Below the pieces are notes generated by a model. That model was not told where the DNA came from and made no database searches. It saw only the letters and a list, made by a program, of their open reading frames with translations. The position numbers and the translations under genes are program-made. Positions 6,929-62,768 of a DNA stretch of 64,000 bases are shown here, piece by piece. Location: positions 1,056,001 through 1,120,000 of the forward strand of contig CAWCKH010000004.1 of assembly GCA_963796055.1 (NCBI GenBank). The letters are read 5' to 3'. The stretch is from an uncultured delta proteobacterium (GTDB lineage Bacteria; Myxococcota; Myxococcia; Myxococcales; Myxococcaceae). Position 1 is the stretch's first letter. Every line of letters begins with the position of its first letter.

Positions 6929-7537
6929 TCACGCCTCCGCCTTTCCGGTCACGCCGAACAGCGGCGCCTGCACCCCGGCCACCGCGGCCTCGGTCTCCGC
7001 CTGGGTGGCACGGGCCAGGTCTCCCTGCGCTCGGGCCACCCGGGCCAGGGCCTCGAAGCCCTCGCGGGCCGCCGGGAACAGCGTGGTCACGGCCTCGGCC
7101 AGCGCCCGCGCCCGCTCGAGCTGTCCGGTGGCGACCGCGAACCGCACCATGGTGAGGTGCGCCTCGAGGTCCGCCTCCCCTGCCTCGACCAGCACGGCGT
7201 AGAGGCGCGGGATGTCGGCATCGTCCGCGGCCCGGGCGGGATCGGCGAGCGCGGCACGCAGCCGTGCCGCCACGTCCTGGAACGCATGGCGCACCGGGAG
7301 CGCGAGCGGGTCGGCCCTCACTGCCTTCTTGAGCTCGTCGAATGCCATCTCCAGCTTTCCAGACCGGTCCAGCACGCCGGCCAGCATGTAGTGCACGTAG
7401 GCGGAGACGAAGCCGAGCCGCTGGGCCTCGGCGACCACCTCGCGAAACAGCGCCTCCGCCGCCTCCGCGCCTCCTCTGTCGTCCAGCGCCCTCCGGACCT
7501 TCCCGAGCAACGCCTCCAGCTGCGTTCCACTCACCAT
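6929..7537 (-). CDS. TPR-like protein
   Basis: TPR pattern ELKKAVRADP, TLFPAAREGF; start chosen at MVSGTQ. Confidence 0.7.
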   Translation of the reverse strand: MVSGTQLEALLGKVRRALDDRGGAEAAEALFREVVAEAQRLGFVSAYVHYMLAGVLDRSGKLEMAFDELKKAVRADPLALPVRHAFQDVAARLRAALADPARAADDADIPRLYAVLVEAGEADLEAHLTMVRFAVATGQLERARALAEAVTTLFPAAREGFEALARVARAQGDLARATQAETEAAVAGVQAPLFGVTGKAEA

Positions 7538-7948
7538 GTCCCAGCTCCCAGCTCGCTCCCGGGGAACCAGGGCGCGCGCACACGTGCCGCGCACGCGTGC
7601 CGAGGGAGGGCCCGCGCGGCGGATCTCCGGTTGAACGGTCGCGGCGACGGCGCGGTCCCCACGCGTACGCATCGAGCGCACGGGCCGGGTCCAGTTCGCC
7701 ACGTGACGTCACCCCGCCATGAGGGACGGGAGACGTCGCCTCACTTCGTCTTGTTCAGAGCCTCGTCGGCGTGCAGCTCGGGAGGCGCAATCATCGTGGC
7801 CTCCTTTCGAGCACAGGCAGCTCCGGGGCCGGGGAGCTTGCAGCGCGGCGTGATGCCAGAGCGCCTGCCCGTCTGTCAAACGGCTGCGGAAGTGCTCGGA
7901 ACGGCTCGCACTGTGCGAAGGTCGCCGGCTCCTCCGACGGGAGAACAG

Positions 7949-9757
7949 ATGGACGCCTCGCTCGCGGGCGACGACGGAACGAAGGTTCGATTCGCCTGGA
8001 TGCCCCGCCCGGGCACGCTTGGCTTCCACTTGATGCTCTCCGCGGTGGCGCTGCTCATCCTCGGCCCGCTCGGAGGCGTGGCCGGGGCCTACATGGCCTT
8101 CACCCTCGGCGTCTTCGTCCCCGGGCAGATCCTCGCTGGCATCCTCGGAAGCGTCATCACCTACCCATACGGCGCCGAGGGCCGTCACGGCGCCAACTAC
8201 ATGCAGACCATGGCCGCCTCCGTCGCCGCGCTCGGTGCGCTGGCGGTCCTCATCCAGGCGGCAGTGTGGCTGGGGATGAAGATGCCCCCGGCCTGGCAGC
8301 TGGTCCTATTCCTCACCTGCGTGGGGATGTTCGGTGTCGGGGTGGGGATGCTCTACACCCCCATCCTCGTCGACCGGATGAAGCTCGAGTACCCGTCGGG
8401 GCACGCGGTTGCCAACATCATCCGCGCGCTCACCGACCGCACCTTGCTCCAACGCTCGGTGAAGAGTCTCGCCTCCGGCGCCGGACTCGGAGCGCTCGGT
8501 GGCTGGCTGATCGATCGCGTCTCGTGGATCGGCGCGAGCGGGCTGTCGATGTCGAACGTGGGTGCGGGGCTCATCGTCGGCTCGCGGATCGCGGTGCCCG
8601 CGTCGGTGCTGGGTCTCGTCGGGTGGCTGGTCACCCCCTGGCTTCGGGCGAACGGCTGGCTCGGAGCGAACGAGCCGTTCCGCCGCCTCGGCTTCCTGGT
8701 CGGCCTGGCTTCGATCATGGGCGCGGCGGTGGTCGACCTCACCCTCATCGGACGCCAGGCCATCGCCCGGGCCCGGGAGCAAGGTGCCGCGCGTCCAGAC
8801 AAAGACTCAGGGATGCGCGGCTTTCCAACCCGCATGCTCGTTCTGTGGGTCCTGTTCTGGGCGGGTGCAGTCGTCCTCGTCGCCACCGGACTCATGCACC
8901 AGCCGGCGCGCTACATCGTCTTCGCCCTCGCGCTGAGCGTCGTCTTCGTGCTGATCAACGGCATCTCGCAGGGGGTCAGCGATCAGAATCCCATCTCCAG
9001 CGCGTTCGTGGTGTCGGTGCTGCTGATGTCGGCGATGGGGCTCCGGAACCCGGTGGTGGCCATCACCGCAGCCACGGTGCTGCTCGTCTGCAGCTCGGTC
9101 GGCGTCGACATGCAGCAGGACCGCTCTACCGGGTGGCGACTGGGGACCGATCGCCGCATGCAGTTCTACTACCAGGTGCTCGGCATCGGCATGGGCGCGG
9201 TGCTCTGCGTGGTGCTGGCTCGCGTCTTCATGAGCGCCTATCCGGTGCTGGCGGTGAACAGCTTCGACCACCCCGAGGCAAAGGTGGGCCAGTGGCAGTC
9301 GGCGATGACCTACAAGCTGGTGGGCGCTATCCGCGGGCTCGGACAGCTCCCCCGATACCAGCTGGTGGCGCTCGAGCTCGGGTTCGTGCTCGGCCTGGTC
9401 ATCGAGGTGCTGCGGAAGGTCCTGAGGGCCAGCGCCCGCTACCGGGCCTTCATCGAGCGTCCCGGGCCCGGCCCCGCCATCGGCTGGGTCGCGGAGTCGG
9501 TTCTTCTCCCCAGCCCCTACGCGTACGCCTTCGGCACCTTCGTCGAGCTGCCGACGGCACTGTGGTTTGGAGCGGGCGGCATCGTTTCCTCGGTGTGGAA
9601 CACGCTGGGCCGGCGAACGGGCCCGGCCGACCGCGCCGCGACCGACGAGCTCCCGGCCGACATGTCGACCACCTCGCTGGTCGGAGGTGGGCTCATCGCC
9701 GGCGAGGCGCTCCTCTACCTGGCGATGGCGCTCATCGGCCTCGGCGCGCTTGTATAG
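7949..9757 (+). CDS. OPT/YSL family oligopeptide transporter
   Basis: NYMQTMAAS, LEYPSG, DMQQDRSTGW and GGLIAGE motifs; many TM segments; GGGAGA RBS. Confidence 0.88.
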   Translation: MDASLAGDDGTKVRFAWMPRPGTLGFHLMLSAVALLILGPLGGVAGAYMAFTLGVFVPGQILAGILGSVITYPYGAEGRHGANYMQTMAASVAALGALAVLIQAAVWLGMKMPPAWQLVLFLTCVGMFGVGVGMLYTPILVDRMKLEYPSGHAVANIIRALTDRTLLQRSVKSLASGAGLGALGGWLIDRVSWIGASGLSMSNVGAGLIVGSRIAVPASVLGLVGWLVTPWLRANGWLGANEPFRRLGFLVGLASIMGAAVVDLTLIGRQAIARAREQGAARPDKDSGMRGFPTRMLVLWVLFWAGAVVLVATGLMHQPARYIVFALALSVVFVLINGISQGVSDQNPISSAFVVSVLLMSAMGLRNPVVAITAATVLLVCSSVGVDMQQDRSTGWRLGTDRRMQFYYQVLGIGMGAVLCVVLARVFMSAYPVLAVNSFDHPEAKVGQWQSAMTYKLVGAIRGLGQLPRYQLVALELGFVLGLVIEVLRKVLRASARYRAFIERPGPGPAIGWVAESVLLPSPYAYAFGTFVELPTALWFGAGGIVSSVWNTLGRRTGPADRAATDELPADMSTTSLVGGGLIAGEALLYLAMALIGLGALV

Positions 9758-9939
9758 GTCAGGGCGGCCGCAGTCGAGGTCCAGGTCAGGGGTCCTCGGG
9801 CACTTATCGTCGGCGAGCTCAGGGCGGCCGCAGTCAGACCGTCAGGCGGCCGCAGTCGAGGTCCAGGTCAGGGGTCCTCGGGCACTTATCGTCGGCGAGC
9901 TCAGGGCGGCCGCAGTCAGACCGTCAGGCGGCCGCAGTC
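9758..9939 (+). repeat. Modular tandem repeat array (82-bp period, 5 cores GTCAGG(G)CGGCCGCAGTC)
   Basis: 9776-9857 is repeated at 9858-9939; the core is the reverse complement of the core at 61471-62003. Confidence 0.93.
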
Positions 9940-9969
9940 AGTGATGCCCTACAGGCTCCTGGAGCTCGC

Positions 9970-10338
9970 TCAGCGCGGGAGGAGCTTCGAGCGTGCCCAT
10001 CCGGCGAAGGCAGCCGCCGGCGCCATCAGGAGCGCCGCCGCGAGGTCCAGCCACCGCGGGTTGGATGCTGGCTCGAGCCAGGGGTGGGCCAGCGCCGCCA
10101 CGGCGATGAGCCCCGCCACGACCAGAGCGTGTGTCAGGGGCTTGCGGCCCGCCATGCTGGCCGCGGTCAGCCCTCCCAGCGCGGCGAAGACCACGCCGTA
10201 GGCGATCGCCCCGGCGAGGAATGCTGCCGTCGGCGTCGTCCCCGGGTGCTCGGCGGAGGCAGCGCGGGGCAGCAACGAGCCGATGACGAAGACCCCGAAG
10301 CCCACCGCAACGGCCACGATGCTGCGGATCCAGTCCAT
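9970..10338 (-). CDS. Small 4-TM membrane protein
   Basis: MDWIRSIVAVAVG start, four hydrophobic segments. Confidence 0.7.
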   Translation of the reverse strand: MDWIRSIVAVAVGFGVFVIGSLLPRAASAEHPGTTPTAAFLAGAIAYGVVFAALGGLTAASMAGRKPLTHALVVAGLIAVAALAHPWLEPASNPRWLDLAAALLMAPAAAFAGWARSKLLPR

Positions 10339-54738: not shown

Positions 54739-56316
54739 GTGACTGCGCGCCGCACCCCCATCGTCCAGCAGGCGGTGGCATCCCTGCTGGTCGCCGCGCT
54801 CGGCGGGTACCCGGTCCGAGCGCTCGCCCAGCAAGGCGCCCCGGCGCAGGGCGCTCCGGTCCAGTCGGTCCCTCCGCCGCCCGCCTACGCGCCGCCCCAG
54901 CCGGTGCCGCAACAGACCTACGCCCCGCAGCAGGCCCCTCCGCAGCAAGCCCCTCCGCAGGGCTACGCGCAGCAGCCGGCGCCGCCCCAGCAGACCTACG
55001 CCCCCCAGCAGGCCGCTCCGCAGCAGGCCCCTCCACAGGGCTACGGGCAGCAGCCGGCGCCGCCCCAGCAGACCTACGCCCCCCAGCAGGCCGCTCCGCA
55101 GCAGGCCCCTCCACAGGGCTACGCGCAGCAGCCGGCACCGCCCCAGCAGACCTACGCCCCCCAGCAGGCCGCTCCGCAGCAGGCCCCTCCGCAGGGCTAC
55201 GCGCAGCAGCCGGCGCCGCCCCAGCAGACCTACGCCCCCCAGCAGGCCGCTCCGCAGCAGGCCCCTCCGCAGGGCTACGCGCAACAGCCGGCGCCGCCCC
55301 AGCAGACCTACGCCCCGCCTGCGCCCGCGTACGCACCCCCGGCCGCAGCTGGCGCCGCGGTGGCCGCGCCCGGCGCTCCCGCCCCCGCCGCACCCCCGCA
55401 GCCCTATGCTCCGGCGCCCCAGGCTGCACCGCAGGGGTACGCCCCGGCGCCCGCGCCCCAGCAGCCGACCTACGCGCCACCTCCACCCGCCTACGCGCCC
55501 CCTGCCGCCGCGGGTGCAGCCGCCGGTGCCGCGGTGGCAGCGCCCGCGGCCCAGGCCCCGGCGGCGCCGCAGGGTGCCCAGCAGCCCGCCCCGGCGGCCC
55601 CCCAGCCCATGGTGCAAGACGCCCCCACGGCCGCTCCGCGCGTCCCACCTGGCGCAGTGCTGATCCCGCCGACCGCCGCACCCGCCCCGGCGCCCACCCG
55701 CTCGGGGGACGCGGACCTCGGCTCGGCACCAGCGCCTCCGCCCCCGCCGGGCCATGCGCCCAAGGCCCCGAGCGCCCAGAAGTCCGCTCCGGTGGACGAC
55801 CGGCTGATTCGCCTCGAGTGGCGGCCGGCGCACGTCGAGGGGAACCAGGGCTGGGGACCGATGGTGCAGGTCCCGGTGATGGGACCCTACAAGCGTCCGT
55901 TGAATGGGCGCTCGCTGTACACCGCTCTGGGTCGGAACGACCTGGCGGAGGAGTACGAGCGCCGCCTCGCCGCCAAGCGCATGATGGGCGTGGGCAGTGC
56001 GCTCCTGCTCGTCTCCGGCATCGCAGTCGGCATCAGCGCCTTCACGATCCACGGTTGCAACCCGGGTGACGCGAAGTGCTGGGACGACCGCGACGCGCAG
56101 CTCAGGTCGCGCTTCTACTGGTCGGGCGGCCTGGTGCTCGGCGGCGCCGTGCTCGGCATCGCCTCGAGCGCCTACAGTCCGCATCCAGTGTCGCGCGACG
56201 AGCTGATCGGCCTCATCCGCCAGCACAACGATCAGATCCGGAGCCAGCCCGGCGTCCACCTGGGCGCGATGGCGCTCCCGGGCGGCGGCGGCCTCAGCCT
56301 CGCCGGAGCGTTTTAG
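54739..56316 (+). CDS. Exported Pro/Gln/Ala-rich repeat protein with C-terminal membrane domain
   Basis: AGAGGAGG RBS, GTG start, signal ending ALA-Q, C-terminal LSLAGAF. Confidence 0.8.
   Translation: MTARRTPIVQQAVASLLVAALGGYPVRALAQQGAPAQGAPVQSVPPPPAYAPPQPVPQQTYAPQQAPPQQAPPQGYAQQPAPPQQTYAPQQAAPQQAPPQGYGQQPAPPQQTYAPQQAAPQQAPPQGYAQQPAPPQQTYAPQQAAPQQAPPQGYAQQPAPPQQTYAPQQAAPQQAPPQGYAQQPAPPQQTYAPPAPAYAPPAAAGAAVAAPGAPAPAAPPQPYAPAPQAAPQGYAPAPAPQQPTYAPPPPAYAPPAAAGAAAGAAVAAPAAQAPAAPQGAQQPAPAAPQPMVQDAPTAAPRVPPGAVLIPPTAAPAPAPTRSGDADLGSAPAPPPPPGHAPKAPSAQKSAPVDDRLIRLEWRPAHVEGNQGWGPMVQVPVMGPYKRPLNGRSLYTALGRNDLAEEYERRLAAKRMMGVGSALLLVSGIAVGISAFTIHGCNPGDAKCWDDRDAQLRSRFYWSGGLVLGGAVLGIASSAYSPHPVSRDELIGLIRQHNDQIRSQPGVHLGAMALPGGGGLSLAGAF
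54913..55317 (+). repeat. 78-bp coding tandem repeat x5.2
   Basis: cagacctacgcc at 54913, 54991, 55069, 55147, 55225 and 55303; unit QTYAPQQAAPQQAPPQGYAQQPAPPQ. Confidence 0.93.
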
Positions 56317-61470: not shown

Positions 61471-62003
61471 GACTGCGGCCGCCCTGACCTCGCCGACTGC
61501 AGCCGACCTGACGACACTCTAACCCGGACCTCGACTGCGGCCGCCCTGACCTCGCCGACTGCAGCCGACCTGACGACACTCTGACCCGACCTCGACTGCG
61601 GCCGCCCTGACCGAGCTGACTGCGGCCGCCCTGACCTCGCCGACTGCAGCCGACCTTACGACACTCTGACCCGGACCTCGACTGCGGCCGCCCTGACCGA
61701 GCTGACTGCGGCCGCCCTGACCTCGCCGACTGCAGCCGACCTGACGACACTCTGACCCGGACCTCGACTGCGGCCGCCCTGACCGAGCTGACTGCGGCCG
61801 CCCGGACCTCGCCGACTGCAGCCGACCTGACCGAGCTGACTGCGGCCGCCCTGACCTCGCCGACTGCAGCCGACCTGACGACACTCTGACCCGGACCTCG
61901 ACTGCGGCCGCCCTGACCGAGCTGACTGCGGCCGCCCGGACCTCGCCGACTGCAGCCGACCTGACGACACTCTGACCCGGACCTCGACTGCGGCCGCCCT
62001 GAC
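61471..62003 (-). repeat. Modular tandem repeat array: 19 x 18-nt cores with three fixed linkers (86-bp higher-order unit)
   Basis: Cores gactgcggccgccctgac and gactgcagccgacctgac; linkers ctcgcc, cgagct and gacactctgacccggacctc. Confidence 0.97.
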
Positions 62004-62768
62004 CTAGATGGCAGGCGCCGGGAGCTGGCCCGCCACCTCGAACTGCGCGCGGGGGAAGACCAGCCGGGTCCGCTCGAACCAGTCGAGCTTCTGCATCTCC
62101 ACCCGCTCGCGCGTGGCCACGCAGCGCCAGGTCTCCGGAGCGCGCGGGGTCTTCCGGGCCAGGGCGCGCGGGGTGAAGAGCGCCACGTTGGGTGCGCCGG
62201 CGAGGTCGCGGGCGCTGGGGTAGCGCACGAGCTCCACGCCGTCGGTCCGCATCTCGGCGCCGAGGCGCTGGGTGGCCTCGTATCGGCTCCTCGAGGCGAG
62301 GACCCGGTGGTGGGCCTCGAAGGGAGAGCGGGTCAGGTCCACCGCGGCGCGGGTGCGGACGTCGGCCCGGAACGCGCTCAGCTCCACCGTCAGCGGCGAG
62401 AGCACAGCCTGGGTCCCCTCCAGGAACAGCAGGCGGTAGTACGCGGTCTCGGCCATCGCCGTCTCCAGCGCCTCGCTGGCGTAGAACAGCGAGCGCTCGG
62501 CCCGGGTACCGAAGCGCGAACCGTGGGTCAGCGGCGGATGGCGGAAGGGCGTGAGGAGGAGGTAGTGCAACCCCTCGAACTCGGGACCCGCCGGCGCGGG
62601 CGGCTTCACCCGGTCGATCAGGGCCTCGAGGATCTCCTGCTCGGCATCCGAGTCGACCAGCCGCCGGGTGGCGTTCCGGTGCTGGGCCTCCACCACCCGC
62701 CACACAGGACCTTGGTAGGGGCGGAGGTTACGTTTTCCCCCGCACTGCATCCAGATACTCGTCGACAC
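62004..62768 (-). CDS. RES-domain toxin (NAD+ phosphorylase family)
   Basis: WRVVE, TPFR...GSRFG, AETAYYR and YPSARD supply the R, E and S residues. Confidence 0.92.
   Translation of the reverse strand: MSTSIWMQCGGKRNLRPYQGPVWRVVEAQHRNATRRLVDSDAEQEILEALIDRVKPPAPAGPEFEGLHYLLLTPFRHPPLTHGSRFGTRAERSLFYASEALETAMAETAYYRLLFLEGTQAVLSPLTVELSAFRADVRTRAAVDLTRSPFEAHHRVLASRSRYEATQRLGAEMRTDGVELVRYPSARDLAGAPNVALFTPRALARKTPRAPETWRCVATRERVEMQKLDWFERTRLVFPRAQFEVAGQLPAPAI

Follow-up and report, generated by a model that had tools for sequence, protein, structure and literature searches.

The window is a 64,000-nucleotide stretch of contig CAWCKH010000004.1 from the genome of an uncultured member of the Myxococcaceae (assembly GCA_963796055.1; 5.53 Mb in seven contigs). 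Within it, a short tandem array lies directly behind a gene for an OPT-family oligopeptide transporter, and a second array of the same family lies on the other strand behind a RES-domain gene (Table 1). The start of the OPT gene was placed near position 7949 by our codon-usage model, and its longest open reading frame begins at 7157.

Table 1. Genes, arrays and putative end sequences at the two array loci of the window
Feature	Position	Strand	Basis or remark
OPT-family oligopeptide transporter gene (host)	7157..9757	+	PF03169, E=1.8e-31; gene call; longest ORF
ATAG, likely the left CTAG target copy after a change of its first base	9754..9757	+	Codon context in orthologues
First A module	9758..9775	+	With the preceding AG, holds the 13-mer found directly inside the IS1182 left TIR
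Tandem array, period 82	9758..9939	+	Two subfamily-II spacers, 5-bp linkers
Decayed IS1182 right TIR	9942..9958	+	14/17 bases match, last 13 exact
CTGG, likely the right CTAG of the target duplication in decayed form	9959..9962	+	Sequence after the TIR remnant
Convergent 122-aa gene, no Pfam match	9970..10338	-	Gene call; TGA 7 bp past the element
Second array, of subfamily I: 19 modules with mixed periods (24/62/86 bp), TIR tail absent	61471..62003	-	Repeat scan
RES-domain gene	62004..62768	-	PF08808, E=8e-30

The TAG stop of the OPT gene (9755-9757) is the anchor of the first array, and the CTAG of the RES gene (62004-62007) anchors the second. The codon context orthologous to the ATAG at the OPT stop reads CTAG in three of five relative genomes. 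Five A modules were located in the OPT array (9758-9775, 9818-9835, 9841-9857, 9900-9917 and 9923-9939), and TRF analysis of positions 9758-9939 returned 2.2 copies with a 99% match at a period of 82, the value that the original prediction had given. That prediction was also right that the junctions behind the two genes differ by a single mismatch in 32 nucleotides, and that each array is homogeneous internally but diverged from the other: within-array identities, taken as TRF values, were 99% for the OPT array and 97-98% for the 86-bp units of the RES array, while the first unit of one array is 77% identical to that of the other. In two respects it had to be amended. The element does not end at 9939 but continues through an AG, the TIR remnant (9942-9958) and the CTGG (9959-9962), and the spacer described as a replacement in the B slot is instead a point-diverged homologue, which represents a second subfamily.

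Genome-wide, 67 candidate clusters were reduced to 60 family loci by dropping six weak single modules and one duplicate piece. The loci range from 18 bp, a single module, to arrays of approximately 870 bp and total about 9.5 kb; all are short, non-coding, dispersed and intergenic, as are IS1182-derived MITEs. A crude classifier assigned about 12 of 40 first units to the second subfamily. The family was detected in 11 of 12 congeners and in none of 28 other relatives. A scan of a species-level genome collection with an exact 21-mer returned 38 loci, 36 of them in Myxococcaceae, Myxococcota or delta-proteobacterial metagenome-assembled genomes, and the remaining two were lone matches without further modules. 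The copies are old, with a median identity of 84% and at least 12 sites common across species. Dispersed copies are up to 97% identical to each other, and orthologous copies are 78-88% identical; in all 8 pairs, a non-orthologous copy gave a closer match. Two divergent arrays (C4:2852092-2852494 and C6:36531-36686, on contigs C4 and C6) keep the A module with a different spacer, and the first of these is not behind a stop.

We analyzed the position of each locus relative to genes. These were called with a codon-usage model of our own, which gave 4,787 genes and 84% coverage, and the stop counts that follow are therefore approximate. Forty-seven of the 60 loci begin exactly after a called same-strand stop and two more begin within 2 bp of one; three touch an opposite-strand stop only, and eight touch neither. 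In one of these eight, an IS copy parts the repeat from the stop of the gene. The tabulated flanks and orientations of the genomic copies were thus non-random, and they uphold the earlier description of a dispersed, TAG-anchored element with a fixed 5' end that keeps the sense orientation (49 of 60 at a same-strand stop versus 3 at an opposite-strand stop only). Random-orientation landing in CTAG would place a fraction of 0.24 in sense at a stop, against the 47/60 observed (p ~1e-18). When either orientation was counted, 52/60 were at a stop, compared with 48% expected for landing in non-coding or stop CTAG (p=4e-10). The anchoring stop was TAG at 43/47 loci versus 1049/4787 genes genome-wide, and among TAG stops the context was CTAG at 29/43 anchored loci versus 430/1049 genome-wide (p=4e-4); several of the non-C flanks of family copies are CTAG in orthologues. 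The downstream gene was convergent at 33/47 anchored loci versus 187/428 CTAG-stop genes (p=6e-4). In relatives, 37 of 40 loci passed the same-strand coding test, with a query that itself required TAG and with some sites shared by descent. This set had been cleared of two non-myxobacterial loci, of L005, which has no anchor, and of four further loci (three duplicates, both copies of one site).

Two general sources of this pattern were considered and rejected. A replication-strand bias does not account for the polarity, as orientations alternate along contig C4 whatever the GC skew. CTAG is depleted 3.3-fold in the genome (1211 occurrences versus 4022 expected) and is near absent from coding regions; rarity of CTAG alone was nevertheless rejected as the source of anchoring and polarity, with only about half of the non-coding CTAG sites of core regions being called stops (324 versus 351). 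At C4:2325249-2325708, two family members facing in opposite directions share one CTAG; the genes there are convergent, and each member is anchored at the stop of a different one.

The original prediction left it undecided whether the element targets TAG or supplies the stop of its host gene. At the OPT site, six of six orthologous loci, from five genomes, lack the element and have their stop at the same codon; this stop reads CTAG in three genomes, CTGA in one and GTAG in one. At the RES site, four of five orthologous loci were usable, and in all four the gene terminates at the same codon (CTAG in two, CTGA in two) and no array follows, one locus showing a short, ambiguous 8-bp likeness to it. 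Therefore the stop predates the insertion; targeting of TAG stands, and supply of the stop by the element is ruled out. When copies from relatives were mapped to the host genome, at least 12 shared sites carried different arrays in different species, in agreement with the proposed local expansion, and at least 15 sites were empty in the host. We also observed at least one collapsed relic and at least two convergent gaps in which the element lies at the stops of opposite genes in different species. This presence and absence at orthologous sites records past mobility of the family. Six TIR-bearing sites were compared with five relatives. A clean 4-bp duplication was found in two (L271 and L266); three had diverged too far, one of these retaining a decayed copy that is shared, and one had no orthologue. 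Many copies have CTAG at both ends, where a duplication of TA inside CTAG would look identical to a duplication of CTAG. Comparison of the flanks with orthologues suggests that both variable positions of the CTAG beside old copies wear away without loss of the stop.

A candidate partner for the family was identified elsewhere in the genome. The original prediction had looked to a RAYT, an IS110 or a reverse transcriptase gene; the partner is instead an IS with a DDE transposase, a 1,598-bp element present in six copies (99.9-100% identity) with a perfect 17-bp TIR, all outside the window. Its 493-aa transposase has DUF772 and DDE domains and scores above the NF033551 IS1182 cut-off (366 versus 270 bits), and its closest named plasmid relative is ISKpn6 (41% identical). 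By transposase cut-off, TIRs and short direct repeats, the partner belongs to the IS1182 family. All 10 of its assembled ends are flanked by CTAG, and an inverted end pair beginning with CTAG was found in 41 of 51 metagenomic relatives examined (80 fetched). Another IS1182 is present in genomes G006 and G010. A 13-mer located just inside the left TIR occurs 82 times in 5.5 Mb, exclusively at the repeat loci and the six IS left ends, and it was absent from the ends of the 80 related IS loci. The CTAG flanks are thus general in the clade, and the inner TIR sequence and the 13-mer are specific to the IS of the host genome. The second half of the module matched the right subterminal region of the IS weakly (P=0.09), and the left-window match to the module, calculated without a position constraint, gave P=0.02. 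Searches of the 12 congeners, most of which are fragmented assemblies, revealed no matching transposase.

The IS itself does not share the polarity of the repeats: at stops it presents three left and three right ends, two of these six contacts being with weak short ORFs, and in the IS1182 clade the end bias at stops was not significant (8/42 versus 3/38, p=0.2). One IS copy and one reversed repeat lie within the CTAG of another repeat copy; in the former case (L002, C4:1657503-1659126), an intact IS1182 occupies the 5' CTAG of a minimal repeat and thereby separates this repeat from the stop of the host gene. In another copy (L001, C4:2586366-2587970), the transposase frame is broken in two by a 1-bp deletion. 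Both ends of contig C1 are inward-facing IS1182 left ends, so the contig is bounded by IS copies, either at an assembly break or as an IS-flanked segment. A sequence at C3:1-1476, at one point taken for a second IS1182, is another IS, present in two copies (the other at C5:217913-219375), whose C3 copy lies just inside an IS1182-type TIR relic; a motif in its left region is similar to the left subterminal sequence of IS1182 and may be a promoter-like motif common to both. Related metagenomic IS1182 elements (L137, L139, L153 and L157) are stacked end to end on shared CTAG.

Analysis of the stop-distal ends of the 60 loci distinguished 20 with a TIR-like tail, 13 that run directly into AG-CTA (the short class) and 27 with neither. 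The TIR-bearing copies end in CTAG in 10 cases and in CTGG in three, and the module-plus-TIR form also occurs in four other congeners (8 of 15 TIR hits). Such a variable end, often an intact TIR plus CTAG, does not fit truncation of a retro-element mobilized by a reverse transcriptase. In the short class, CTAG is followed by G in 10 of 11 cases, so this CTAG could be a linker within the element instead of a duplicated target. At the other end, no left TIR was present at any of the 60 repeat loci, the left-TIR junction being found only in the six IS copies, and the family is therefore not filed as a canonical MITE. Copies with two TIRs were absent from the host genome and from 12 congeners when searched with the exact junction pattern (18 one-mismatch hits also lay outside the host genome). 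Absorption of the left TIR into gene ends was also considered and rejected, as TIR-likeness upstream of the 47 loci showed no excess over other TAG genes (p=0.61). In four copies (C4:3406918, L198, L202 and L206), the TIR is preceded by a second CTAG and a short segment of different sequence; these copies are either an ancestral form of greater length or the result of one mini-element stacking on another. Isolated TIR relics, attached to other short bodies and likewise lacking a second TIR, were seen at C3:22579-22620, C4:1977088-1977108, L200, L201 and L205.

The sense strand of the repeat is G-rich. Folding of the window element gave z scores of -1.2 for the sense and -2.5 for the antisense strand, and a single copy gave -1.1 and +0.5; in this range there was no end-to-end pairing into a whole-element stem-loop, no consistent hairpin and no palindrome, as the earlier distinction from REPs had held. 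With no Rfam match and no terminator-like site in the window element, a structured RNA or terminator found no support. The genome contains two Y1 transposase-like genes and five matches to IS110 Transposase_20, and no curated family locus lies within 10 kb of any of these. The expectation of a RAYT or Y1 gene flanked by the same cores failed, since the module is missing from the flanks of both Y1 genes. These genes (L061, C4:2033391; L062, C4:1006610) are bracketed by unrelated repeats of their own, a perfect 17-bp inverted pair and short tandem direct repeats.

The right end and the 13-mer shared with the resident IS1182 suggest that the array is likely an internally deleted derivative of this IS, and a minimal copy can be read as CTAG, a left subterminal piece, a right subterminal piece, the right TIR and CTAG. 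We therefore propose that the array is probably an IS1182-derived non-autonomous element that is likely to have inserted at an existing CTAG stop and then grown by slippage. The separate steps of this model carry different weight. Descent of the element from IS ends is very probable, as is expansion in tandem through slippage or unequal recombination between the 18-bp modules, which would give rise to the 24-, 62- and 82-86-bp periods. The IS1182 transposase would quite likely have moved the element in trans, with duplication of CTAG. The weakest part of the mechanism, with perhaps an even chance of being correct, is that the spreading unit already lacked the left TIR, so that its bare left end served as a substitute end and the asymmetry set its orientation relative to the gene. 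Insertions behind stops, most of them in gaps between convergent genes, would then be the survivors, as the duplicated target preserves the stop and no operon is split. The model requires no host function for the family.

Several observations count against parts of this model. The IS copies are identical and hence recent, whereas the repeats are old, and the polarity of the repeats (49 versus 3) is not seen for IS1182 itself; both weigh against the model. So do the lack of two-TIR copies and the normal need of a DDE transposase for two ends, the failure to find the matching transposase in the congeners, the weak match of the module to the right subterminal region of the IS, the 27 loci with neither type of tail, the four of six sites that gave no usable comparison and the possible linker CTAG of the short class. 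ISEcp1 provides a precedent for the use of a substitute end. The most specific version of the proposal, in which the IS1182 transposase repeatedly moves a one-TIR element with its bare end at the gene stop and its TIR distal, by a one-ended transposition oriented by transcription or translation, is for us a doubtful one. If it were true, one-ended transposition would have given rise to a family of stop-anchored tandem arrays that spans the genus.

The main rival holds that the family began as an ordinary MITE with two TIRs, and that slippage between TAG repeats later removed the stop-proximal TIR from every copy. This requires no unusual transposition chemistry and is chemically simpler than one-TIR movement. 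TAG/CTA direct repeats bracket each TIR, a deletion between them yields exactly the 13 short ends, and the copy at C4:3406819 reads CTAG-AG-module, precisely the product expected from the present IS. However, such decay predicts intact copies and mirror-image relics with the left TIR, found at 0 of 60 loci, and it still requires an orientation bias. Selective purging of an SD-like TIR start overlapping the stop was unsupported by base counts after CTAG stops; GAG follows a CTAG stop commonly (31/430), so there is no sign that a TIR was purged next to the stop. We regard this route as rather unlikely. Forty of the 60 loci have no TIR tail, as would be expected if the family were a REP-like host repeat with its own Y1/RAYT or IS110 mobilizer and IS1182 landed in its CTAG, leaving TIR scars. 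The copies with a second CTAG before the TIR (L198, L202, L206 and C4:3406918) and the Y1 and IS110 genes of the host are consistent with this, and GTAG REPs often provide TAG stops, according to the available part of PMC3733652. It is made improbable by the 13-mer, common only to the repeat and the IS1182 left end, by shared derived tail variants at many loci, by the lack of a palindrome and by the absence of modules around, or family loci near, the candidate mobilizer genes.

Alternatively, the repeat might be a domesticated 3'-UTR element, kept in sense because its G-rich strand helps the host through mRNA stability or termination. The strong polarity in the host genome and in relatives, the G-rich sense strand and the sites common across species would agree with such a role. 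However, there is no conserved fold, orthologous copies resemble each other less than their best non-orthologous matches, and the copy number per site varies freely. Furthermore, at the 33 convergent loci the C-rich strand already lies behind the stop of the other gene and so is tolerated; because these 33 of 47 loci face a convergent gene that reads the other strand after its stop, selection on the RNA strand is unlikely, and we give this explanation very little credence.

Its probable derivation from IS1182 places the family near a kind of element that is already described, IS1182-derived MITEs, of which it is a variant without a left TIR and with gene-linked polarity. MITEPye1 of Paracoccus yeei is an IS1182-derived MITE that, as far as the accessible text of PMC11578231 describes it, is likewise non-coding and intergenic, with 4-bp direct repeats, ends related to IS1182 TIRs and presumed mobilization in trans. 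In contrast to the two 18-bp TIRs, the long stem-loop and the one to three copies at 96-100% identity reported there for MITEPye1, the window family comprises about 60 older copies with at most one TIR and without a stable hairpin, which form tandem arrays and are polar relative to genes. The partner IS is a member of the IS1182 family/ISKpn6-like group (NF033551), and the repeat itself has no transposase. In the portion of PMC5678879 consulted, IS1272/IS1272L of Staphylococcus, also of the IS1182 family, inserts just downstream of genes, and an IS1272L variant carries a tandem duplication of its own 25-bp left end; IS1272 replaces stem-loop targets without duplication, whereas the window family has a CTAG target that is apparently duplicated. 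GTAG REPs and BIMEs with their RAYTs, as presented in part of PMC3733652, are also dispersed, often in tandem with flanking DNA, with termini often at TAG stops, but they are palindromic and linked to a Y1 transposase, and the window family is neither. The mycobacterial MIRUs are a looser analogue: the sections seen of PMC12548453 describe direct tandem repeats at gene boundaries that have little effect on host genes, are inserted at start codons and contain a coupled ORF, and mention no homology to IS ends. Further background is available in parts of PMC2229807 and PMC3281130. In the literature searched, which excluded ISfinder, most subscription journals and supplements, we found no description of this family and no one-TIR, stop-polar IS1182 derivative.

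As a class, the family is ordinary selfish DNA. It offers a worked case of an IS-end remnant that may have become a REP- or MIRU-like direct-repeat family with variable tandem arrays, and the arrays are genus-specific, locus-variable markers. The remaining point of interest is the polarity relative to the gene, unlike that of the parent IS (3:3); an intact, recently active partner transposase in the same genome makes one-ended insertion and gene-linked orientation directly testable. The window also contains a 78-bp tandem repeat (54906-55316; 5.3 copies, 96%) within an open frame, a coding repeat rich in Gln, Pro and Ala.
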